Source of the DNA: Bacteroidaceae bacterium
Lineage (GTDB): Bacteria > Pseudomonadota > Alphaproteobacteria > RF32 > CAG-239
Assembly (NCBI GenBank): GCA_963641885.1
Contig: CAVIDY010000002.1
Span: 18,811 to 82,810, forward strand
Direction of reading: 5' to 3'
DNA: 64,000 nucleotides
The position numbers and the translations under genes are program-made. Every line of letters starts with the position of its first letter. Position 1 is the stretch's first letter. The notes under the pieces were generated by a model. The model did not search any database. It was not told where the DNA came from and was given only the letters and a program-made list of their open reading frames with translations. Of the stretch, positions 1,474 to 19,447 are shown piece by piece.

Positions 1474-2811
1474 ATGTCATTTTCACCGAATTTATTAAAT
1501 ATCCGCAGCCTGCTCGGCTCTGAGAAAAAGCCTGACAAAAACAGCTTATTTCGAGTTACTGTCGTTGCGTTTGAAGACAAGTGCAATTTAAACTGCGGTC
1601 TGCGTTTTGCCGAACTTTTGAAAAAAAGCAATTTATTTGACATAACATTTTTTAACGAACCGTTTGCCAAAGGCTTTTTAAATTTACAAAGCCGCAACTT
1701 TTTTGATTTTATCGACCGCGGCAATAAAATTTTGAGTTCGACTCAAGCTGATATTGTGATTTGGGGATATGAAGATGAAGGTAAAATCCGCCTTAATTTT
1801 CAGACAGCTAATCAATATGCCATCCCCGACAGCCTGTCTTTTTCACTTTTAGACAGCTTATTTATTCCTTTAAGCTATTTAACAGACACTGCGAATTTTT
1901 CCGAATCTCTGCTGCTTTTAATATACGGAATAATTGTGGCGGCAATAAATCCGGTTAGCAACGCACAAAAACAAAAGCGTCCGCAGATATTGCAAGAGCT
2001 CATCACGCTTTTATCCGCTGACAGAACCCCAAAAGACATATCCAAGGAATTTATGCCGTATATTATGAACTTATTGGGAAAAATATATTTGTGCAATGCC
2101 CGCAACAGTTTGACCGAAAAAGATATTGAAATTATCCATAACCTGTTTGAGCTGGCGCTGAAAAATAAACAATATATCCGCCTGCCTATTTATTACGGCT
2201 GCATTTACAATAATTTCGGTCAGCTATATGAAACAGCGTTTCGGCAAAGTAGACAAGGCAATCTCTATTATTTGAAACAAGCCATCTCCAACTATCAAGC
2301 GGCGCAGAAAAATTTGAACCGAAACTATCCTTATGATTTTGGGCTAATTGCCTATCATTTGGCTTTGCTTTATTTTGAATATTGGAAGCACACCGCCGAT
2401 TTGCAGGCTTTACGTGATGCCGTATCCAAGCTCCGCGAGGCTGAAAAAGTTTATTCTTTGGCGCAATTTCCGGAATCTTGGTGCCAAATTGAGGGGCTTT
2501 TAGGCAATTATATCACTTCTCTCGGAATGCAGACCAAAAGCAACGAGCTTATGCAGTTAGCAATCGAATCCTACAAAAATCAGCAAAAAATTTATACGCA
2601 GAACAACGCTCCGGCAGTTTGGGCGGAAATTCAAGAAAAAATCGGCAATATTTTTTATTTGCTCGGCAAACAAAATGACGATGACCAACTAATGGAAGAA
2701 GCGCGCAATTATTTTAATTCGGCGCAGGAAATATATTGTGAATTAAATCTGAAACAAGACATAAAAAGCGTGGATCGAGCCTTGCTGAAAGTCAGAAATT
2801 ATTTGGGTTGA
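1474..2811 (+). CDS. Hypothetical protein with a TPR-like helical repeat C-terminal half
   Basis: The ORF-track start at 1435 overlaps the upstream gene. ATG 1474 has an AGGAC Shine-Dalgarno 8 nt upstream and sits just after the upstream stop. The C-terminal region shows repeated helical A/Y/L patterns typical of TPR. Confidence 0.5.
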   Translation: MSFSPNLLNIRSLLGSEKKPDKNSLFRVTVVAFEDKCNLNCGLRFAELLKKSNLFDITFFNEPFAKGFLNLQSRNFFDFIDRGNKILSSTQADIVIWGYEDEGKIRLNFQTANQYAIPDSLSFSLLDSLFIPLSYLTDTANFSESLLLLIYGIIVAAINPVSNAQKQKRPQILQELITLLSADRTPKDISKEFMPYIMNLLGKIYLCNARNSLTEKDIEIIHNLFELALKNKQYIRLPIYYGCIYNNFGQLYETAFRQSRQGNLYYLKQAISNYQAAQKNLNRNYPYDFGLIAYHLALLYFEYWKHTADLQALRDAVSKLREAEKVYSLAQFPESWCQIEGLLGNYITSLGMQTKSNELMQLAIESYKNQQKIYTQNNAPAVWAEIQEKIGNIFYLLGKQNDDDQLMEEARNYFNSAQEIYCELNLKQDIKSVDRALLKVRNYLG

Positions 2812-2863
2812 TCTTGATTTTTGACGGACAGAGTTTATCTCCTGACTTGGAAGGAGATTTAGA

Positions 2864-3466
2864 ATGACACATTGTATAGAACAAGACAGCTTAACCCGCC
2901 GCCGCTCCGTTTATGCGCTTGGACACACGCGGGTTGTCACGGATTTTTGTTTGGAAGACACCTTAAAGGACTGCTTAAAAAATTGCCCGACGCCGTTTAA
3001 TGCACAGTCGGCGCGGCTTGTGCTTTTACTCAATAAAAAACATTTAGACTTTTGGAATTTGGTTCTGCAAAAAGTTTTGGAAGTTACTCCGCTGGGCAAA
3101 AAAAGCAGCGCAGAACAAAAAATAAATTCATTTGCGGCAGCCTATGGCACAATTCTATATTTTGAAGACACCAATATTTTAGCACAGCTGCAAAAAGATT
3201 TTCCTCTCTATCAAAAAAATATGCACGACTGGACTTTTGAAGCCAATGGAATGCTGCAATATATGGTTTGGCAGGCTTTGGCAGAAAATGAAATAGGTGC
3301 CTCGCTGCAACATTATAATGAGCTGATTGAGGAAGATGTCAAAAAAATGCTGGACTTGCCGGACAGCTGGAAAATCTTGTCGCAAATGCCATTCGGCAGC
3401 ATAGAAAAAACACCGGCGGAAAAAACATTTTTGCCGTTGGAAAACCGCTTCAAAATTTTTAAGTAA
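2864..3466 (+). CDS. Nitroreductase-family protein (RutE/YdjA-like NAD(P)H nitroreductase fold)
   Basis: AAGGAG Shine-Dalgarno. TRRRSVYALG...PTPFNAQSARLVLL resembles the TRRS.R.F / PSAxNxQPWRF nitroreductase signature. Confidence 0.55.
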   Translation: MTHCIEQDSLTRRRSVYALGHTRVVTDFCLEDTLKDCLKNCPTPFNAQSARLVLLLNKKHLDFWNLVLQKVLEVTPLGKKSSAEQKINSFAAAYGTILYFEDTNILAQLQKDFPLYQKNMHDWTFEANGMLQYMVWQALAENEIGASLQHYNELIEEDVKKMLDLPDSWKILSQMPFGSIEKTPAEKTFLPLENRFKIFK

Positions 3467-3468
3467 AG

Positions 3469-4050
3469 TTATTTATGATTAAGTTTCATACCGAGCTGGT
3501 TAGAAAATTCGGCAATGCCTTTTTTGAAAAGCACTCCGATTAAATCGGCAACCAAGTCGATATTGGCTTCCAAATTTGCTTTATCAGCTTTAGAAAAGCC
3601 GGAAAGAACGTGATTGACAATGCTGTCGGCATCGCGGTTTTGCGGGTGTCCGATACCAATGCGAATCCGATTATAATTAGGAGTAATGCAGGAATCTATG
3701 CTTTTTAAACCATTGTGCCCGCCAGCACCGCCGCCGAGTTTGGCTTTTATTTTATCAGTTGGTAAATCCATATCATCATGAATAACCACAATATTCTGCG
3801 GCAAAATTTTGTAAAAGTTAGCCGCCTTGACAACGCTGTTGCCGGAAAGATTCATAAATGTTTGCGGTTTCAGCAAATAAACTTTCTCGCCATCAATATT
3901 TCCCTCGGCAATCAGACCGTCAAATTTAGAGCGGAACGGCGAAAAATTATAGCGGCGATGAAGTTCATCAGCCGCCATAAATCCAACATTATGGCGGGTA
4001 GCCGCATATTCCGTTCCCGGATTACCTAAACCAACCACCAAAAACATCAT
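3469..4050 (-). CDS. pth: Peptidyl-tRNA hydrolase
   Basis: MMFLVVGLGNPGTEYAATRHNVGF...HNGLKS are canonical Pth motifs. Confidence 0.92.
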   Translation of the reverse strand: MMFLVVGLGNPGTEYAATRHNVGFMAADELHRRYNFSPFRSKFDGLIAEGNIDGEKVYLLKPQTFMNLSGNSVVKAANFYKILPQNIVVIHDDMDLPTDKIKAKLGGGAGGHNGLKSIDSCITPNYNRIRIGIGHPQNRDADSIVNHVLSGFSKADKANLEANIDLVADLIGVLFKKGIAEFSNQLGMKLNHK

Positions 4051-4503: not shown

Positions 4504-5217
4504 ATGTTATACATTTTAGCGGGCTTTGTGTTTGGCTGTTTGATTCCCTATTTAGCGCGCCGCCTTGGCAAATTGATGCCAGCGACCATGGGTTATATTC
4601 TGCTCAAAATTTTTATTCCGCAGCATTATATGCCGTGGAGCAAACTGAAAAATGACTTTGAATATATGGAATTATTTAAAAGATATATGATGAGAAGCTT
4701 GGGCTGGGGAATTTTCTGCGCCGCCGCCACCTATTTGTTTGCCGTAAATTTTGACCCGTATTACACTGGCTGGTACATTGCCTTTTTATGGATTATGCTG
4801 CTGCTGGTGGAAATCGACAAGCGCTTTATGCTGCTGCCGGATATTTTGACCCTGCCGCTGCTGGTTTTGGGCTTCGGCTATGCGGCAGTCAACGGCGTAT
4901 GGCTGGATACGATTGACCCGCAGCTTATCAGTAATGCGCAAAACAGCTTTATGGGCGCTTGTGTCGGCTATTTGATGCCGGTTGTCGCCAGTATGTTTTT
5001 GGTTTGGAAATATCCGGACGCGTTCGGCGGCGGCGACATTAAGCTTTTGGCGGCTATCGGCGCTTGGGTTGGCTTAGAGCCTGTTTCATACATTTTGCTC
5101 GGATCCTGCATTTTGTTTGCCTTGGGCTGTGCCATAAAAAAACAGAGAGTCGGTCCATTTGGTCCGTCGATTGTCTACGCCACTCTGCTGGTTTGTATTT
5201 TCTTGTTTGGAATTTAG
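4504..5217 (+). CDS. A24-family prepilin (type IV leader) peptidase, lacking the N-terminal Cys-tetrad/methyltransferase region
   Basis: The conserved catalytic-Asp motifs are present: VEIDKRFMLLPD and FGGGDIKLLAAIGAWVG. It is a multi-TM protein. Confidence 0.85.
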   Translation: MLYILAGFVFGCLIPYLARRLGKLMPATMGYILLKIFIPQHYMPWSKLKNDFEYMELFKRYMMRSLGWGIFCAAATYLFAVNFDPYYTGWYIAFLWIMLLLVEIDKRFMLLPDILTLPLLVLGFGYAAVNGVWLDTIDPQLISNAQNSFMGACVGYLMPVVASMFLVWKYPDAFGGGDIKLLAAIGAWVGLEPVSYILLGSCILFALGCAIKKQRVGPFGPSIVYATLLVCIFLFGI

Positions 5218-5310
5218 CAAAAAAAATTCACTGGCTTCTTGACATCGCATTTTGTGAACACTAACTAAACAAGTAGTGAATTATAAAACTATTTGTTTAG
5301 GAGTATTAAA

Positions 5311-5598
5311 ATGAACATCAAACCTTTACACGATAAAGTTTTAATCAAACGTGTAGATGAAGAAACAAAAACCGCTGGCGGTATCATTATTCCGGACACA
5401 GCCAAAGAAAAACCGTCTGAAGGCGTGGTTGAGGCTGTGGGCAACGGTCGTGTTGCTCCAGACGGCAAAATTATCGCTTTGTCTGTTAAAGCCGGCGACC
5501 GCGTGCTGTTTGGCAAATGGGCGGGCACAGAAATTAAAGTTAACGGCGAATCCCGCTTGATTGTTAACGAATCTGATATTTTAGCAATTATAGAATAA
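5311..5598 (+). CDS. groES: Co-chaperonin GroES
   Basis: [14 protein letters not shown]...; AGGAG Shine-Dalgarno at 5298-5302. The ORF-track start at 5293 is TTG and has no Shine-Dalgarno. Confidence 0.95.
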
Positions 5599-5612
5599 TC
5601 TGCGAAAGGTGA

Positions 5613-7259
<1,647 letters not shown>

Positions 7260-7278
7260 TAATCCTCCAGATTATGAA

Positions 7279-7316
7279 ACTCCCTGCTTTGCTCTCAAGG
7301 CAGGGAGTTTTTTTTG
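7279..7316 (+). terminator. Rho-independent terminator after groEL
   Basis: Hairpin actccctgc...gcagggagt followed by T8. Confidence 0.7.
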
Positions 7317-7330
7317 ATTGATTAGTAATT

Positions 7331-7511
7331 GTCATTCTTGGCTTTGAGCGCCAGCTCATTCGCCGAGAATCCAGAACAATACATCAATAACGTTGAGGGC
7401 GTAGGCGTTAAAGAAACAAAGCAAGGAGCATAAACACACCACTGGTCATTCTTGGCTTTGAGCGATAGCTCATTCGCCGAGAATCCAGAACAATACATCA
7501 ATAACGTTGAG
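7331..7511 (-). repeat. Two direct copies (7331-7398 and 7444-7511) of a roughly 68-bp imperfect-palindromic repeat element, in reverse orientation relative to the copies at 7881-8115
   Basis: gtcattcttggctttgagcg[c/a][c/t]agctcattcgccgagaatccagaacaatacatcaataacgttgagggcg is present twice. Confidence 0.85.
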
Positions 7512-7571
7512 GGCGCTAAGCGAATAATAGACATCTTGACTTTTACTGATACAATATGCTAATTTTCTCAT

Positions 7572-7862
7572 ATGAAAACAATGTATGTATATCTTATAGC
7601 AAGTAAACGAAACGGCACCCTATATTCCGGTGTTACAAATAATTTAGTACGTCGTATTTATGAACATAGAAATGAATTGATAGAAGGTTTCTCTAAACGA
7701 TACCATATACATATGCTTGTTTATTATGAAATTTATGAGGATACTTTAACAGCTATTGAACGTGAGAAAAAAGTCAAACACGCAAGCCGTAAGTATAAAA
7801 TATCTTTGATAGAAAACATGAATCCGGAATGGAAAGATTTATATGAAGATATATGCAAATAA
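7572..7862 (+). CDS. Small stand-alone GIY-YIG nuclease-family protein (UPF0213/COG2827-like)
   Basis: YVYLIASKRNGTLYSGVTNNLVRRIYEH...KVKHASRKYKISLIE carries the GIY-(x10)-YIG pattern and the family C-terminal motif. Confidence 0.8.
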   Translation: MKTMYVYLIASKRNGTLYSGVTNNLVRRIYEHRNELIEGFSKRYHIHMLVYYEIYEDTLTAIEREKKVKHASRKYKISLIENMNPEWKDLYEDICK

Positions 7863-7880
7863 TATCAGATTATTTTTATA

Positions 7881-8115
7881 AAGCGGATATACCATACTGG
7901 ATTCTCGGCGAATGAGCTGACGCTCAAAGCCAAGAATGACAAGCACAGGTTCTTATTTTGCATCTTTAACGCCTCCACCTTCAACGTCATGCTTGAGCGT
8001 GAGCTTTAGCGAACTGCCTCGAGCATCCAGAAATAATGAGTCCTTATTTTTTAAGCAGACATACCATACTGGATTCTCGGCGAATGAGCTATCGCTCAAA
8101 GCCAAGAATGACAAG
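7881..8115 (+). repeat. Two forward-orientation copies (7881-7944 and 8054-8115) of the same palindromic element
   Basis: ataccatactggattctcggcgaatgagct[ga/at]cgctcaaagccaagaatgacaag is the reverse complement of the left-side copies, so it acts as terminal inverted repeats around the GIY-YIG gene. Confidence 0.85.
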
Positions 8116-8340
8116 TAATACTATTTTCTGGCTTAATGCTCATTCGCCAAGAATGACAAGTAATACTATTTTCTGGCTTAATGCTCATTCGCCAAGAATG
8201 ACAAGTAATACTATTTTCTGGCTTAATGCTCATTCGCCAAGAATGACAAGTAATACTATTTTCTGGCTTAATGCTCATTCGCCAAGAATGACAAGTAATA
8301 CTATTTTCTGGCTTAATGCTCATTCGCCAAGAATGACAGT
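8116..8340 (+). repeat. Five perfect tandem copies of a 45-bp unit derived from the palindromic element
   Basis: taatactattttctggcttaatgctcattcgccaagaatgacaag occurs five times. Each unit contains the tcattc-gccaa-gaatga mini-hairpin. The array abuts the stop codon of the 1133-aa gene at 8400-8402. Confidence 0.9.
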
Positions 8341-8399
8341 GTTAGGGACGATGGCTGTCGCTCAAAGCCAAGAATGACAGTGTTAGGAGTTAAAGTTGA

Positions 8400-11300
8400 T
8401 TACCATGCTTCGTTATATTTCAACGTTGGGTCATTCAACCTATTTAAATATTTACCATTAGTCGAATCAACCTTTTCATAATCAATTGCACCTGTCATAT
8501 CCTGCATATATTTATAGCCATCTACAAAGTAATCTTTTTCTGCACTATCTTCATAGCCATGAAATAGGTTTGTTCTATCAAAGTAGCAATATACCGTTGC
8601 ATATCCTTCTATTGATCCTCTCAATACCGGAAATACATTCCAATAGTAACTTTCTATTTTATTGTTACTTGGGGTAGTGCCTATAAATGCATCATACTTA
8701 GATTTAGGATACAAAAATCCAATAATTGCTGACCAACCTTGATAAATACCTTTTTCACTCTTTAATTTAGTCGTCAGAGCTTTTAATCTTGTGCTTTGTT
8801 GGAACATCAACGGCGCAGATGGTTGATAAGAAGCATTAGATTGTAGAACATAAGTACTTGTTTTTACGTTACTGATATCAGCAGTGCCTTTTTCAGCACC
8901 TACAGTTACAGGTATTGTAGTAGCAGTAGTACTATCTTTATCAACCACCATACCGACTTTACTAAATGACGGTCTATCCGCTGGAGTTGCTACTGCAGTT
9001 ACTTGTTCTTTGCTTGGAGTGTCTGGTAATATAAAATATCTATCATATGTTTTGTCACTAGCTTGAGTACCTGCCCCATGTACTGAGCCTGCTTGCGCCA
9101 TTTCCCAGCTTGCCGGAGTCAAGGTTATCACACGACCATATCCAGGAGGACATTGCGGCGCTGGCACAACCCCCATAAACGGCGATGCCCAACTGTCTTC
9201 TTTGCTCATATCCAATGTCTCATCAGGATCTATATCTTGATTCTTTTTTTGGGCTTCTGAATACAACTCATCATCTGCACTAAAATCCCAATTTCCTACT
9301 TTTGTTTCAGAAATGGTATTGTTAACCACGTAAATACCTTTATTGATAAAGTCAGGTAAAATATCACTCAGACGGGCTCCGCCGCGAGTGGTTAATTTGA
9401 TATCGTGCATAACTGAAGTATACGCCGGATTTACCATATAGGTATCATAAGCAACGTCATGGTTAGATCCATTATAATTACTAAAGTCCTTTGTAGCAAG
9501 TATAGGAAATTCAGCGCCGTATGTTTTATTCGTAACAGCATTACCATTGCTACCATAAGCCAAATTGTTTGCGACAAAGCGGGAGGCGGCAACTACACCT
9601 TTACCCTCTAACGCGCCGGTTGTTGTAGCAGGTTTACTATTTTCTCCGCGGACTTCCATATATCCCTTACGGATATATACAGTACCAGGTTCAGTATCAC
9701 TATAATTATTGGTGGTGCTAGTAGCGCCTTGGTCGATATAAACAAGGTTGGAATAATCACCCGCTGTGCTATTCGGCACGATGTTTACACCGGCTCTTAC
9801 ATTATATTGACCGATAGAAACATGATATTTTCCATTCTCTACACTTTCTGTTCCGCGTCCAACTTGACCGGATTTGGAGTCACCAATAAGAACGTTGCCA
9901 TGCATAGCAATATCATACGGCTGCAGATATCCTGCTTGGTTACTGCCTGCAGAGGTGAACATATCTTGAAAAGCATAGGAGTTTGGATTAGAATTTGCGC
10001 GAACACTAAACACATACCGTCTATCGGCAGTTGCATCATGATAATATAATCCGCCTACACCGATATTAAAGTTAGCGTCAGCCAAATCTACCGAACCTTG
10101 ATTAAACAAAGTTCTTGTCTCGTTTTCTGCTCCCTCAATGGTTAATGTTTTATTTTCCATTATAGATCTAATACCGCCACCGTACAGCACCGAAACAGCT
10201 GGTGCGGCAGAATCCGCTGTTTTATTACCGTGAAGCAAAAATAAGCCCGCAGCTTCATCATTTGCATCAGCTCCACCGGTTGCCAACATAATTTGATTCT
10301 CTCGAAATTCAGCTCCAGTTATGTTGTCATCGCCAGTATTTTGAATTGTGACGCCATCTTCATTGGCGGTCAGCCATTTTTCGCTGTCGTCGATATTTTT
10401 TGAGCCAACTGAAAGCGTTGCCGCACGTATTTTTTGCGTATCCAACTGACGAGTTGCCAACAAACCATCTATTTTAGTGTTTGCACCAACTCTAACCTGG
10501 AATAGCGGACTATTGTTATACGTTATTTCATCTAAATTTGCCCCAGGATATGTAGCACTTTTTATTCCATTTTCTAAGATGACAACTCTATCCTTTATGT
10601 TTGCCTCATTATTTTCAAAAGTATAATATGGCTTCAACTGCATAACATTTCCCATAAAATTCATATCTTCTTTTGTTGCTTTTATGGCATAAGTTCCATC
10701 TGCTCGTCCATCAATATACCCGATTTTCACATCATTCCAGACGTCCACATTTGAAGCTAAATTCACATCTCCCAAGTTTGTCAGCGAGCCGTCGGCTGTG
10801 GCGTTGCCGTTGGTGTCAACCTTAAAGTGGAAGTCTTCAGTTGTTGTGTCGCCCTCTGTAATCAGATTACGTCCAAAGCCCAAACGATTTGCATCGGCTT
10901 TAAATTGTTCTCCCGCCGCAATCAAATTGCCTTGAATAAAGGCGTCCGGTTTGCCGAAACCGTCAGCGATATAAAGTCCATAAGTAGAGTTCTCAATATT
11001 GTCGTTCTCTGCACCAACAATCAAGCTTTTAATATTGCGGATACTAAATGTTTTTTGATGATTTTCATTATTATACACATCGTAGGTATTATCAACACCG
11101 CCCATGTATAAATCCGTGCGCATACTGTTTTTCCACAATGTGTTAGGATCGTTACCGGCATCGCGTCCGCGCTGCAGGTATTTATCCATATCAATTTCGT
11201 TGCCAGTCGCGGCACTGATGGTGTCCGCCGACGCCGTCACAATGGAATATTGAGCCGCATCATCTCCATCGGGAAACACTTCGCTATATTCATCGCCTTC

Positions 11301-11801
11301 AAGTTTCCAAATACCGCCGATACCGCGGGCTTTTTTCTCGCCAGTCACATAACCGCCGCTAGAACCAATCAGCGAGGCAATGCGCGAAGTACGCTCTTGT
11401 CCAATATCGGTGTTGGTTTTAAACAGCGCAAACGTGGTCAGGTTATTTCCCTGTTTGGCAATAGCGATTTCAGGCTTGCCGTAATTATACAGCGCCTTGT
11501 CAATTTTAAAGCCATACGGCAGATACGAATCAATTAACGGTAGATCCAATTTACGGATTTTCTGTGTTTCACCCATATCTGCAATAATGGTGGAGTAGTT
11601 TGCGCCCACATAGTCGTTTGCCGCGTTCATAATAGTGCGAATGGTGGACGCAGTGTTGATGTCTTCTACCTCCATGGTTCTTTCCGCCGACTTTTTATAC
11701 ATGGTCGGGGTAACAACGGCGATAAGTCCCAGCATAGCCAGGGCTTCAATCATCAAACCACCCCTCTGCGCTATAGATTTTGAGATATTACGACGTTTCA
11801 T
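8400..11801 (-). CDS. Giant (1133 aa) secreted protein with a type IV prepilin-like (class III) N-terminal signal; candidate pilus-associated adhesin
   Basis: Strong AAGGAG Shine-Dalgarno 8 nt upstream. The N-terminus MKRRNISKSIAQRG|GLMIEALAMLGLIAVV has a basic leader, a G before the cleavage site, Glu at +5 and a 20-aa hydrophobic segment. The remainder is Gly/Asn/Thr/Asp-rich and adhesin-like. Confidence 0.6.
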   Translation of the reverse strand: MKRRNISKSIAQRGGLMIEALAMLGLIAVVTPTMYKKSAERTMEVEDINTASTIRTIMNAANDYVGANYSTIIADMGETQKIRKLDLPLIDSYLPYGFKIDKALYNYGKPEIAIAKQGNNLTTFALFKTNTDIGQERTSRIASLIGSSGGYVTGEKKARGIGGIWKLEGDEYSEVFPDGDDAAQYSIVTASADTISAATGNEIDMDKYLQRGRDAGNDPNTLWKNSMRTDLYMGGVDNTYDVYNNENHQKTFSIRNIKSLIVGAENDNIENSTYGLYIADGFGKPDAFIQGNLIAAGEQFKADANRLGFGRNLITEGDTTTEDFHFKVDTNGNATADGSLTNLGDVNLASNVDVWNDVKIGYIDGRADGTYAIKATKEDMNFMGNVMQLKPYYTFENNEANIKDRVVILENGIKSATYPGANLDEITYNNSPLFQVRVGANTKIDGLLATRQLDTQKIRAATLSVGSKNIDDSEKWLTANEDGVTIQNTGDDNITGAEFRENQIMLATGGADANDEAAGLFLLHGNKTADSAAPAVSVLYGGGIRSIMENKTLTIEGAENETRTLFNQGSVDLADANFNIGVGGLYYHDATADRRYVFSVRANSNPNSYAFQDMFTSAGSNQAGYLQPYDIAMHGNVLIGDSKSGQVGRGTESVENGKYHVSIGQYNVRAGVNIVPNSTAGDYSNLVYIDQGATSTTNNYSDTEPGTVYIRKGYMEVRGENSKPATTTGALEGKGVVAASRFVANNLAYGSNGNAVTNKTYGAEFPILATKDFSNYNGSNHDVAYDTYMVNPAYTSVMHDIKLTTRGGARLSDILPDFINKGIYVVNNTISETKVGNWDFSADDELYSEAQKKNQDIDPDETLDMSKEDSWASPFMGVVPAPQCPPGYGRVITLTPASWEMAQAGSVHGAGTQASDKTYDRYFILPDTPSKEQVTAVATPADRPSFSKVGMVVDKDSTTATTIPVTVGAEKGTADISNVKTSTYVLQSNASYQPSAPLMFQQSTRLKALTTKLKSEKGIYQGWSAIIGFLYPKSKYDAFIGTTPSNNKIESYYWNVFPVLRGSIEGYATVYCYFDRTNLFHGYEDSAEKDYFVDGYKYMQDMTGAIDYEKVDSTNGKYLNRLNDPTLKYNEAW

Positions 11802-13777: not shown

Positions 13778-14596
13778 TTATTCTGCACTTTCATGCATCG
13801 GTACATCTGGAGTTTCCACTTCGGCAGATGTTTCTGGCTGAGCTACTGCTTCAGATTTTACCGGCTTTTGAGTTTCAATATCAGCATTAGAATCTGCATC
13901 TGCTGTAACATCAGATGTTTTGTTAGAAATAGTATTCGCTGCACTTGTATTCTGAACAGTAGCATCTTGCTGATCGCTATCTTTATCCAACGCAACAGAA
14001 ATAGCACTAAGCACAATGCTTATGATAAAATATAAAATAATATAAATATTGGCCTGTTTATTATATTTTGGACTTTCTTCAACCGGTTTTCCATATCTGT
14101 TTTCTTCCGCTTGGCCTTTACGCAAATATAAAATTAACAGCCATATCATAACACCAAAAACCACAACACCGGAAGCCCCCATCAAGCCAATACCGATATA
14201 TTTCATATGCGGTGTCAGCATAGTTCCAAATATTATACCTACTCCAAATATTAAAGGCAGCCATAAAAGCTGACCGCTATGGTTTGTATCATGCAATCGG
14301 CGTACGGACAAAGCCAATACAGCAATGGTTTCAAGCAGTGAATACACATAGTATAAAACCGTACCGACAATCATCATTGTTTTTATAGGAAGTAACAGTG
14401 ACATAGCTAATAGCGATATAACCATTCCCCAACCAAATATAACAAGGCTAAATAGAAAATTGGCAAAAACAAATCCCCAATAATCATATTTGCTGGCGCG
14501 GGTTTTGAAGTTAAACATATTTTTGAAACCTGCCACAAATGCGGTCAGCAGATTTTTTTCATTTTCAGTTTTTTCAACTGTTTCTGTCATTGTCAT
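13778..14596 (-). CDS. DUF805-family inner-membrane protein (YhaH-like) with an acidic Ser/Thr/Asp-rich C-terminal tail
   Basis: FKTRASKYDYWGF and VRRLHDTNHSG motifs. Start is taken at MTMTETVEK, which has an AGGAA Shine-Dalgarno and overlaps the comEC 3' end by 23 nt. Confidence 0.7.
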   Translation of the reverse strand: MTMTETVEKTENEKNLLTAFVAGFKNMFNFKTRASKYDYWGFVFANFLFSLVIFGWGMVISLLAMSLLLPIKTMMIVGTVLYYVYSLLETIAVLALSVRRLHDTNHSGQLLWLPLIFGVGIIFGTMLTPHMKYIGIGLMGASGVVVFGVMIWLLILYLRKGQAEENRYGKPVEESPKYNKQANIYIILYFIISIVLSAISVALDKDSDQQDATVQNTSAANTISNKTSDVTADADSNADIETQKPVKSEAVAQPETSAEVETPDVPMHESAE

Positions 14597-16625
14597 TCCT
14601 TTCTTGTTTAATGCAACTGCGCCATGGCCGGCAAACGCCCTGCGGCTGCAGCGGCACAACTTTTGTTTTATTTTGCTTAAAGATATACCCTCCGGCGCTA
14701 TTGTCAATATTTTTTCCATTTATTTTGATATCGCCTTGCTTAGAAAATTCAATCGAATCCAGATAAGCGCATTTTTCCGCACTGCATTTTAATTCAATAT
14801 TTTCCAAGTTTGTTTTGCTGCCGGCAAAAATTTCTTTCAACTCCTCTTTTTGCTCTTTATTCAAATCTTTCAGACGCAGATTTTCACGCCAAACCGAAAC
14901 TGTCCAGCTATCTGTTTTCATTGGCAGAAGCAGCATTTCCCCTGCCTTATCGCGCAAAGCTATCCCCTCGCCTTTGGGAGCAAAAACCATATCCGGCTGC
15001 GCACCGAAAAACATTGAGCTTACACCAATCAAAACCGGCAGCACGCCCCATAAACGCCATTTTCTTTGCCATACGCACAGCCACCAGCCGCCGCAGACAA
15101 TAAGTGCGAATCCCCCAAACGGCAGCGAATCCACATACGCCACACTATGCGGCAAACTTGAGACAAACTCCGTTATTTGGTTGAGCCAACTCACACCATA
15201 GCCCAGAGCTTTTAGCGGATACAGAGCCAATCCCAACGGCAGAGCGACTAAACAAAGCAAAATCAGAGGCATCAAAACCAAACCTATTAACGGACCGGCA
15301 AGCAGGTTAGCCAGGCTTGTATAAACCGAAATCCTGTGGAAATGATAAATTGCAAACGGCATTGTCGCCAGACTCGCTACAAAATCGCAAATCACAATTC
15401 CCGCTAAATAGAAAAAAATCTTGCTGAAAATCCCCCGATTTACTGACCATAAAGCAATCTTTTGCGCATATCTTTCATAAAAAGCGATTAAGGCAACCAC
15501 CGCCGCAAACGACATCTGAAAGCTGATAGATATCAAAGCCTGCGGTGAAATTATCAGCAAAATTAAACCCGCAAAACAAACCATTCGCATAGAAATCGCC
15601 TGCCGATTAAAAATAACCCCGAGCAACACCACGGCGGTCATGATAAACGCACGTTCCGCAGGCACCGCCATTCCCGAAACCGACAAATAGAGCGCGCTGA
15701 AAAGAATTGCTCCGAGCGCGGCAAGTTTTTTGACATCATAGCGCAAAGCTACAGCTGGAAACAGCGCCAGCAAAAAACGCAGCACAAAAAACATCAAGCC
15801 GGCAATCGCGCCCATGTGCAAACCGGAAACCGACAGAAAATGCGCCAATCCCGAATCGCGGTAATTATTAACGATTTGCTTCGGAGTGCGGCTCTGCTCG
15901 CCAATCAGCACCGCGTCAACAATTCCGGCCTCGTTCGGCGGCAGAATCGCTGCCACATCATTAGTAATCCGCTGACGGATTTTGTTAAGGCGAATCCGAA
16001 AAAACGAGGTTTGTTTCTGCTCACAATCAATCACAAATATTGAACTATTTGCATAACCGATACCGCTGATTTCCTCGTAAAAATATTTTCTATCCAGCTG
16101 AAAGCCATTCAGTACCGGCACTGGCGACGGCGGAAAAAATGTACCTACCAACTCCACACACTGCCCGACTTCCAGTTCAGTATTTCCGCTGTTCATCATG
16201 GTGACGCGGTATTTACCTTTAAGCGGTTCGTCAAAATTTTCAACATTCTGCAAAAGCAGCCGCTTGCGTCCTTTTTCATTATATGAAACCGCGCTGATTT
16301 GCCCTTTAATATAATCTGTAATTTCCGGCGTAAACATAACTTTGCGGCTTTTTAATAGAGTTTGCAGCTGGATATCCATAAAACCGAATTCGCATATAAG
16401 AATCGCCGTAAAAAGCAGATGCAGCCCCTTATTACGCAATAAATAAAACAACAGCAAAGTCGCTTCAAAAACGCCCAGACTATACCAATAATTCGGCTCA
16501 AACGGCAAAGCAAAGTATACGGCTATTCCCAAACCAAATAAAAACGGCACCCAAGCCAGCCACCTGCTCTGTTCAGCAAAAAAATTTTCGGAGACATAAG
16601 CTCTTATCTTGCGGAAAATTCTCAT
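14574..16625 (-). CDS. comEC: DNA internalisation/competence protein ComEC/Rec2
   Basis: A 683-aa polytopic protein with the ComEC competence domain (DSGLAHFLSVSGLHMG...). Its start overlaps the lpxB stop by ATGA. Confidence 0.85.
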   Translation of the reverse strand: MRIFRKIRAYVSENFFAEQSRWLAWVPFLFGLGIAVYFALPFEPNYWYSLGVFEATLLLFYLLRNKGLHLLFTAILICEFGFMDIQLQTLLKSRKVMFTPEITDYIKGQISAVSYNEKGRKRLLLQNVENFDEPLKGKYRVTMMNSGNTELEVGQCVELVGTFFPPSPVPVLNGFQLDRKYFYEEISGIGYANSSIFVIDCEQKQTSFFRIRLNKIRQRITNDVAAILPPNEAGIVDAVLIGEQSRTPKQIVNNYRDSGLAHFLSVSGLHMGAIAGLMFFVLRFLLALFPAVALRYDVKKLAALGAILFSALYLSVSGMAVPAERAFIMTAVVLLGVIFNRQAISMRMVCFAGLILLIISPQALISISFQMSFAAVVALIAFYERYAQKIALWSVNRGIFSKIFFYLAGIVICDFVASLATMPFAIYHFHRISVYTSLANLLAGPLIGLVLMPLILLCLVALPLGLALYPLKALGYGVSWLNQITEFVSSLPHSVAYVDSLPFGGFALIVCGGWWLCVWQRKWRLWGVLPVLIGVSSMFFGAQPDMVFAPKGEGIALRDKAGEMLLLPMKTDSWTVSVWRENLRLKDLNKEQKEELKEIFAGSKTNLENIELKCSAEKCAYLDSIEFSKQGDIKINGKNIDNSAGGYIFKQNKTKVVPLQPQGVCRPWRSCIKQERNDNDRNS

Positions 16626-19104: not shown

Positions 19105-19240
19105 AGAAACAATTAACCGCTATTTTTTGTAAAAAAAATGGCGGTTTCTTTTTGCCTGAAATGTTTTTCATAAAGAAAGTTGACAAAATATCTAAAAAAT
19201 GTTATTTTGTATTCAGAACAAATATTTTAGGAGAAATAAC

Positions 19241-19447
19241 ATGACCAATTTAACAAAACGTATCTTAGAAAAAAAGGCTCAGGTAGAAGCTAAGAGAAAT
19301 ATTCATGACGTAGCCGCTGCAACTGTTGATAATGAAAGAAAAATCGCTGAAAAACAAAACAGAGAATATTCACGCGAAGAAGCTAACCGCGACAGAATGA
19401 ATGCTTTGTTGGCAATGCAAGGCATTAACCGCGAAGATTATAACTAA
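19241..19447 (+). CDS. Hypothetical small charged coiled-coil protein (68 aa)
   Basis: AGGAG Shine-Dalgarno at 19229-19233. A TTGACA promoter lies at 19181 and a terminator hairpin cttccgatatttttcggaag+T8 at 19468-19497. Confidence 0.5.
   Translation: MTNLTKRILEKKAQVEAKRNIHDVAAATVDNERKIAEKQNREYSREEANRDRMNALLAMQGINREDYN

Follow-up and report, generated by a model that had tools for sequence, protein, structure and literature searches.

We analysed a 64,000-nucleotide stretch from an uncultured alphaproteobacterium (assembly GCA_963641885.1, contig CAVIDY010000002.1, positions 18,811 to 82,810 of the forward strand; hereafter the window, with positions counted from its first letter), in which a gene for a small GIY-YIG nuclease is surrounded by inverted copies of an imperfect palindrome. 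Very probably this locus represents an Ssn–SRM module, in which the gene, ssn (7572–7862, + strand), encodes an endonuclease of the Ssn family and the repeats on either side of it are the cognate hairpins that this enzyme recognises (Ssn-related motifs, SRMs). The module type has already been described and is not a new kind of element; what the locus adds to the known picture is a long variant of the hairpin and informative structural alleles.

Chenal et al. (2025, PMC11893778) described SsnA of Neisseria meningitidis (NMV_0044 / NMB0047), a 94-aa single-domain GIY-YIG protein assigned to CDD cd10448 (GIY-YIG_unchar_3). SsnA binds the NTS hairpin CGTCATTCCCGCGMAVGCGGGAATCYRG as single-stranded DNA only and cuts a few nucleotides upstream of it; the C after the palindrome is the most critical base for binding, and the three bases before the palindrome are the most critical for cleavage. 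Motifs of this kind lie near the gene in 71% of SsnA homologs and flank it on both sides in 42%, and SsnA itself reduces transformation by NTS-flanked DNA (PMC11893778). No follow-up to this publication turned up in the literature collection searched.

The 96-aa product of ssn has PF01541 as its sole family match (residues 4–74, E 9e-14), which confirms the GIY-YIG nuclease named in an initial annotation of this DNA. For comparison with Neisseria we used the presumed SsnA ortholog of N. gonorrhoeae, a 94-aa NTS-flanked open reading frame (ORF) on NZ_CP119140.1 that two canonical NTS copies follow. The window protein shares with it 53% identity and 77% positives over 90 aa (E 2e-36 pairwise, 1e-25 in tblastn), and it counts as an SsnA homolog by the published threshold of E < 1e-10 over > 75% of the length (PMC11893778). 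The catalytic residues Y7, Y18, G20, R28, H32, E65 and N84 show no variation among 26 aligned homologs, and the AlphaFold model is one compact GIY-YIG domain (pLDDT 94.8). By fold, this model comes nearest to the solved structures of UPF0213 BH0048 and of the nuclease domain of Slx1, and the sequence search of PDB returned UPF0213 alone (1zg2, E 0.006). Membership in UPF0213/YhbQ was ruled out, as the 1zg2 match reaches merely E 0.006, and a scan of the protein against NCBIfam gave no match. We conclude that the 96-aa protein is, as predicted from its sequence, a member of the Ssn family, and that the repeats are a putative long variant of the Ssn motif. The same tblastn search revealed that PLSDB files two 2.17-Mb N. 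gonorrhoeae chromosomes (NZ_CP119140.1 and NZ_CP119142.1) as plasmids.

The repeats share the core GGATTCTCGGCGAATGAGC-N4-GCTCAAAGCCAAGAATGAC, a 42-nt imperfect palindrome, which a pattern search of the 64-kb window detected in four copies, each identical at 38/38 specified bases: 7331–7372 (−), 7445–7486 (−), 7899–7940 (+) and 8071–8112 (+). This pattern is found neither elsewhere in the window nor in 100 shuffles, and a generic hairpin search of the window (GGATTC...GAATGAC) returned the four known copies and no others. The upstream copies belong to 71-nt units in direct orientation (7331–7401 and 7445–7515, 97% identical), the downstream copies belong to 69-nt units in the opposite orientation (7875–7943 and 8047–8115, 91% identical), and the left and right arms are 86–98% complementary. 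The initial annotation had proposed two copies per side in opposed orientations, and this holds, with the strands as it gave them and the ends within a few bases.

On its tagged strand, each copy consists of (T/G)GTC, a palindrome composed of ATTCTTGGC, TTTGAGCG..AGCTCATTC and GCCGAGAAT, and CCAG. The palindrome folds into a two-tier hairpin of 37 nt, with a 9-bp basal stem ATTCTTGGC/GCCGAGAAT that has a T.G pair at position 6; the 19 nt between the basal arms form an inner stem-loop (GAGC-N4-GCTC) of 5 bp and a 4-nt loop. An unpaired GTC precedes the palindrome and CCAG comes after it, so that all four copies follow the scheme (T/G)GTC + AT...AT + CCAG, the tag being TGTC in three of them and GGTC in one. 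Folding each copy, as had been recommended in the initial annotation, gave such two-tier hairpins for the tagged strand, with energies between −9.9 and −12.4 kcal/mol (z between −3.1 and −4.2). This strand is 1.8 kcal/mol more stable than its complement, where the T.G pair becomes C.A. Since the tagged strand is the + strand upstream of ssn and the − strand downstream of it, the CCAG tails point toward the gene and the tags away from it.

Upstream of the gene, SRM-L1 (7330–7374, tagged strand +) comprises TGTC at 7330–7333, the palindrome at 7334–7370 and CCAG at 7371–7374, while SRM-L2 (7444–7488, tagged strand +), the upstream site closest to ssn, has the tag GGTC and the loop GATA and folds at −12.4 kcal/mol (z −4.2). 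Downstream, the closest site is SRM-R1 (7897–7941, tagged strand −), which reads CTGG-palindrome-GACA on the + strand; SRM-R2 (8069–8113, tagged strand −) is in its core and loop the reverse complement of SRM-L2 (arms 98% complementary).

The association of these hairpins with the nuclease gene extends well beyond the window. Among 5.8 billion proteins searched there were 1463 homologs, often encoded on very short contigs, and we scanned 80 unrelated metagenomic loci with homologs at 52–64% identity for hairpins composed of a GTC tag and an AT...AT palindrome. A tag-first hairpin lies within 100 bp upstream of the homolog in 38/75 loci, as against 5 in the opposite orientation, its distance to the start codon being typically 13–17 nt; an inverted hairpin lies within 100 bp downstream in 30/77 loci, as against 8 in the other orientation, and both sides are occupied in 21/72. 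Close to the gene there are 5.3 hairpins per kb, as against 0.17 per kb more than 500 bp away, an enrichment of about 30-fold over background. In 81 tagged ssn-proximal hairpins the tail, on which no filter was set, reads C (81/81), C (76/81), A (78/81) and G or T (73/81), while the stem sequences vary from locus to locus. The palindrome measures 20 or 23 nt in 69/81 of these hairpins and at least 31 nt in just six; the 37-nt hairpin of the window is a rare long variant.

Within the lineage, the long motifs keep ATTCTT...GAGAAT together with the T.G pair at position 6, and the next three pairs of the basal stem covary (GGC/GCC, GCC/GGC, CAG/CTG, CGG/CCG, GGG/CCC, TGC/GCA and GAG/CTC). The sister-lineage homolog of the window element combines conservation of the inner 19 nt with two compensatory double changes in the basal stem. 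In a related species, whose ssn is 68% identical, this gene occurs with a second class of motif, a short one (e.g., ATTGCCGGA, with the tail CTTG), and the pairing of a separate motif class with a diverged ssn fits cognate pairs of enzyme and site. Another small repeat, approximately ACCCCTCACCCGAGGC...CTCTCCCGC..GGGGCGAGGTT, stands beside the SRM clusters of relatives (we number the compared contigs L001, L002 and so on: L004 4640–4690; L098 3700–3750; L099 5720–5765 and 5990–6010) and is absent at the window locus.

By their tag, stem and tail, the window repeats appear to belong to the class of CGTC-tagged REPs (repetitive extragenic palindromes), the same kind as NTS/dRS3 of Neisseria. One of the two readings offered in the initial annotation, a REP/RPE-like hairpin family that had proliferated locally, is thus sustained as to the family and not as to the proliferation: outside the locus, the 64-kb window holds no copy and the species-representative genome holds one tag-less copy, a count taken from metagenome-assembled genomes (MAGs), which under-assemble repeats. 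The other reading, a MITE (miniature inverted-repeat transposable element) or IS-like unit with a GIY-YIG gene as its cargo, was correct in that the layout resembles an insertion sequence (IS) or a REPtron and that the nuclease and the hairpins belong together; the unit is not a novel MITE, being the Ssn/SRM pairing already published (PMC11893778).

Comparison of related assemblies, also suggested in the initial annotation, revealed polymorphism in the presence, absence and orientation of the unit. At the groEL site of closely related assemblies we distinguish three alleles, with the cassette forward, inverted or absent, and their breakpoints lie at or inside a hairpin. The exact Ssn protein of the window is encoded on one other contig, L001 (GCA_963642415.1), where groEL is 99.9% identical and the ssn cassette is inverted, the join lying inside the hairpin that adjoins the groEL terminator. 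Contig L118 (GCA_963617265.1) is 95% identical over 5.7 kb and has no ssn; the distance from groEL to the orthologous 1165-aa gene is 215 bp there, and only TGTCATTTTTGGCTTTGA, the 5' half of SRM-L1, is kept, with divergence beginning at the hairpin centre. Another contig of GCA_963617265.1 carries a tag-less copy of the element beside a pilin-like gene, along with two short motifs. This assembly (CAVEOB010000003.1, ...17.1) is labelled [Ruminococcus] gnavus, though its groEL region shares 95% identity with the window, which codes for lipid A enzymes (lpxB, lpxI), and its GroEL (P0122) is nearly identical to that of the window; judged by sequence, the label or the bin is wrong. The window GroEL has matches of 99% identity among proteins with the name "MAG: Alphaproteobacteria bacterium", which are found on hundreds of contigs.

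Ten contigs of the sister lineage (L099–L108; GroEL 99% identical in amino acids, about 87% identity in nucleotides after the gene) have no ssn after groEL. Six of them carry instead an ssn-less tail-to-tail doublet homologous to 7947–8116 of the window, two have a doublet of other motifs and two have none; in the eight doublet-bearing contigs the homology to the window stops just before the first hairpin, and in eight of the ten contigs genes for Bundlin/PilS pilins come next. Such ssn-less doublets, with spacers of 40–46 nt, thus occur both at the equivalent site of the sister lineage and beside the window cassette. In another lineage, unrelated genes occupy the position after groEL. Close relatives of ssn (at least 88% identical) were found in four contexts, next to groEL, der, pilin genes with a tRNA-like sequence, and pyrimidine-nucleoside phosphorylase, with the reservation that the L014 protein covers 71% of the query and that the tRNA-like call was made without a tRNA finder. 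The orientation of ssn relative to der is flipped between L003/L096 and L004–L013, and in L014 and L098 two flanking motif types stand on swapped sides. As a separate observation, the junction after groEL is hypervariable among close lineages (L099–L108, L110–L118), containing one or two Bundlin/PilS genes, nrdDG, unrelated ORFs or a large pilin-like gene. On the other side of groEL, a gene for a 607-aa AAA/STAND-type NTPase (1782–3605) is inserted in the sister strain L105, separating groES from the prepilin peptidase gene; in other strains this interval is only about 90 bp long.

Several observations weigh against the assignment of the locus to the Ssn–SRM modules or limit its scope. The identity of 53% to the Neisseria ortholog is below the strict version of the published criterion, which is at least 60%. 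Both sides of ssn carry the GTC tag, the AT...AT palindrome and the CCAG tail, with the tails toward the gene, but the published SRM motif itself (HGTCWYN(0-2)YYVSBRHN(0-5)WNVSBRGN(0-2)RNCYNB), which matches 44/80 of the distant loci, has no match in the window or in its closest relatives L001–L014, since the palindrome is too long for it; the window hairpin lies outside the form for which cleavage was demonstrated. In the related species represented by protein P0007, hairpin units are present only downstream of ssn and no inverted copy is present upstream, so bracketing is frequent and not obligatory. The inversion is known from a single short-read MAG contig (L001, 4.6 kb), which ends inside a repeat, and it may represent the path of an assembler through an inverted repeat; look-ups of the exact proteins gave a single further contig with this Ssn or GroEL and no second assembly showing the inversion.

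The structural alleles raise the question of whether the cassette is an autonomous element, similar to an IS, a REPtron or a homing element. Ssn would then nick at the outward tags, the cassette would be excised or copied into ssn-less doublets, and solo or doublet SRMs would be to it what REPINs are to RAYT, namely non-autonomous derivatives. The layout with terminal inverted repeats points in this direction, and for Neisseria the architecture of NTS-ssnA-NTS was equated with that of insertion sequences and a domestication was proposed, with no demonstration of transposition (PMC11893778). The four genomic contexts of close ssn relatives, the polymorphism in presence and orientation, the ssn-less doublets both at the equivalent sister site and by the window cassette, and a 6-bp direct repeat, AGTAAT, just outside SRM-L1 and SRM-R2 are also consistent with it. 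On the other hand, the 96-aa protein is a nuclease domain only and is not known to have strand-transfer or ligation activity. Cleavage would affect opposite strands at the two ends, unlike in IS200/IS605, and the subfamily is of low copy number. The target-site duplications that the initial annotation proposed to look for were not recovered: among the alleles compared, we found no clean duplication, no empty site and no filled/empty pair separated by simple insertion, as L118 and L099 hold other sequence in place of the cassette; moreover, AGTAAT is a single AT-rich case whose right copy lies within a tandem unit. Ordinary recombination between inverted repeats accounts for both the inversion and the loss. 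We therefore consider an autonomous element rather unlikely. Equally doubtful, to our mind, is the proposal that the SRM–ssn–SRM cassette is an active invertible and mobile unit, in which nicks made by Ssn at the outward tags lead to inversion, loss, amplification and copying into ssn-less SRM doublets. Were it true, Ssn would be the missing mobilising enzyme of the CGTC-tagged REP superfamily, and structural variation would be generated at the type IV pilin loci of this alphaproteobacterium.

The inverted repeats, the inverted allele in a near-identical strain, the hypervariable region after groEL with its Bundlin/PilS genes in sister lineages, and the weak similarity of the N-terminus of the neighbouring gene product to the PilV shufflon constant region could also be explained by an invertible, shufflon-like phase-variation switch, which acts on the type IV pilin-like neighbour and carries the nuclease gene as a passenger. 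This is very improbable: the inverted segment consists of ssn and its promoter only, with no alternative 3' exons of a pilin gene; Pfam identified no recombinase in the nine neighbouring ORFs scanned (a minority of those in the window); the Shufflon_N match is under the curated cut-off; and the same bracketing recurs across the set of 80 loci, most of which were not checked for pilin genes. Finally, the hairpins might be ordinary REP-type terminators or mRNA-stabilising structures that lie by chance near a small nuclease gene, or else a local duplication or an assembly artefact. The copies are indeed downstream of convergent genes, which is the usual position of REPs, they are confined within the window to this locus, and MAG assemblies break there. 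We give this explanation hardly any credence, as the enrichment near homologs is 30-fold and orientation-specific in 80 independent loci, the tag and the tail are conserved while the stems covary, the link is supported by published biochemistry (PMC11893778), and the same structure is found in an independent assembly.

For the Ssn–SRM module, we propose the following mechanism, modelled on the Neisseria and Wolbachia enzymes. In single-stranded DNA, the strand 5'-(T/C)GTC-palindrome-CCAG-3' would fold into a hairpin, Ssn would bind the palindrome together with the C after it, and the tagged strand would be cut a few nucleotides 5' of GTC, with duplex DNA and the complementary strand being spared. 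By analogy, we infer that the window hairpins are cut by Ssn in this way. Inverted near-palindromic sites may be prone to recombination through RecA-type exchange or hairpin breakage, possibly helped by Ssn nicks, and recombination at these sites would result in inversion, loss and tandem amplification of the cassette. Thus, the junction between groEL and the pilin-like gene could be a structural hot spot, and we infer that the rearrangements described above are caused by recombination or hairpin breakage at the sites. More speculatively, the module might influence transformation or else variation of its type IV pilin-like neighbour, in line with what has been proposed for Neisseria.

Additional repeats in and around the module had remained unmentioned in the initial annotation. 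A fifth element, E5 (7985–8030, +), has the tag CGTC, the basal stem ATGCTTGAG/CTCGAGCAT and the tail CCAG, i.e., the SRM architecture with a different stem, and forms a weak hairpin (−6.1 kcal/mol, z −0.3). Together with SRM-R2 it makes up the ssn-less tail-to-tail doublet of the window, homologous to those found after groEL in sister lineages. A tandem array at 8101–8338 (Tandem Repeats Finder) consists of 5.3 units of 45 bp that are 100% identical, which suggests its recent origin; the exact unit is absent from the other 108 loci fetched. Every unit holds GCTCATTCGCCAAGAATGAC, a variant of the SRM 3' half with the tag, which would pair perfectly with the 5' half. The repeats also form a mosaic, since two 39-nt segments (7387–7425 and 7952–7990) are inverted copies of each other, 79% complementary and non-collinear with the main arms. 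Because the same 39-nt module stands before the tag of E5-type hairpins in sister lineages, the left repeats look like truncated inverted copies of a doublet composed of module, hairpin, spacer and hairpin.

The partial copy that had been noted at 8355–8382 corresponds to a half SRM at 8354–8379 (−), with the 3' arm and the GAC tag on the + strand, 21 nt from the stop codon of the downstream gene. The short ORFs of the region, described in the initial annotation as translations of repeats, do run through them, and the array gives rise to an artefactual ORF of 113 aa (8036–8377). The hexamer AGTAAT stands directly outside the outermost tags (7322–7333 and 8110–8121; AGTAAT-T-GTC ... GAC-A-AGTAAT); it could be a target-site duplication or a chance occurrence in AT-rich sequence, and its right copy belongs to the tandem unit. 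One additional tagged hairpin in the window (19199–19245), AT-rich and with a TTTT tail, looks like a chance match, and an Rfam scan of 7000–8600 gave two sub-threshold chance matches and nothing else.

A promoter-like site precedes ssn (7528–7555, +; TAGACA-16-TACAAT with TG before the −10 box, 17 nt 5' of the ATG), being a consensus match only. To the left of the module lies groES-groEL (5293–7259, +), followed by an intrinsic terminator (7276–7311, +) with a 16-pair stem and a T run, which delimits the variable region on the left; relatives are still homologous across it, up to about 7324 in the more distant L099–L108 and up to 7347, inside SRM-L1, in L118 of the same species. To the right, outside the module proper, a gene convergent with ssn (8400–11801, −) encodes a protein of 1133 aa with a prepilin-like N-terminus (G|GLMIE), to which no Pfam family was assigned; its first 179 aa weakly match the PilV shufflon constant region (Shufflon_N, PF04917, E 7e-5, under the curated cut-off). 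Its orthologs are only 39–48% identical, yet in a related species they keep the same position, convergent with the 68%-identical ssn. The window also codes for a prepilin peptidase (4504–5217, +), a ComEC-type competence channel (14574–16625, −; PF03772, E 3.5e-61) and the lipid A enzymes lpxB and lpxI. The presence of ComEC and prepilin peptidase near the module fits DNA uptake, the process in which SsnA of Neisseria acts.

These data extend the Ssn modules to abundant uncultured alphaproteobacteria. Since the published search motif does not pick up their long two-tier hairpins, surveys based on this motif undercount the family. Whether Ssn modules move was raised only as a hypothesis (PMC11893778), and the three alleles with their hairpin breakpoints offer natural evidence for deciding whether the modules move or merely recombine. 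Membership of the hairpins in the CGTC-tagged REPs joins two literatures: a dedicated enzyme of this class was an open question in 2013, and Chenal et al. (PMC11893778) do not cite the paper of that year by Di Nocera et al. (PMC3733652). The clustering of hairpins at pilin genes, as in Neisseria, may point to a common role in varying surface genes or in controlling transformation.

Compared with the known systems, the locus is closest to the Ssn family: a single-domain GIY-YIG protein of about 95 aa without a DNA-binding extension, whose gene is bracketed by inverted hairpins, the palindrome of each being preceded by a GTC tag and followed by a C (CCAG). Both here and in Neisseria, such hairpins are clustered by a surface (pilin-like) gene in an organism that has ComEC. 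Unlike the Ssn/NTS pairs, the window has a hairpin of 37 nt with an extra inner stem-loop instead of the usual 20–23 nt or so, two sites per side and a tandem array, and its host is an uncultured alphaproteobacterium in which the subfamily is of low copy number, as against hundreds of copies.

The CGTC-tagged REPs are defined by a (C/T)GTC tag, an 8–9-bp stem starting with AT, a loop of 4–5 nt and a CCA tail; they are mainly alphaproteobacterial, include dRS3 of Neisseria and RPE-4/-6 of Rickettsia, and apparently have no dedicated transposase (Di Nocera et al. 2013, PMC3733652). The window repeats share with them the unpaired (C/T)GTC tag, a 9-bp stem starting with AT, the CCA tail, the inverted dimers and the mainly alphaproteobacterial hosts. 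They differ in the structured insert of 19 nt in place of the loop, in the GGTC tag of one copy, and in not being high-copy in the available data.

The resemblance to REPtrons and RAYT-REPIN systems (Nunvar 2010; Bertels and Rainey 2011, PMC3116915) consists in a lone enzyme gene between inverted copies of the recognised hairpin, in gene-less hairpin doublets elsewhere, and in recognition through an unpaired tag by the stem. It is a resemblance of layout only, as the window enzyme is of the GIY-YIG type and not an HUH/Y1 transposase, the tag is GTC and not GTAG, and there is no sign of transposition chemistry. The locus has the terminal inverted repeats of an insertion sequence but no transposase domain, its alleles show no clean insertion and AGTAAT is its single 6-bp candidate duplication; unlike a MITE, it has no copies dispersed over the 64 kb of the window. 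In Neisseria, arrays of short repeat units bounded by dRS3 are called intergenic mosaic elements (NIMEs). The window resembles them in its mosaic clusters of short units that are bounded by tagged palindromes, lie by surface-protein genes and vary in unit number between strains, and differs from them in its sequences, in its host and in its perfectly homogeneous 45-bp array, known from one assembly only.

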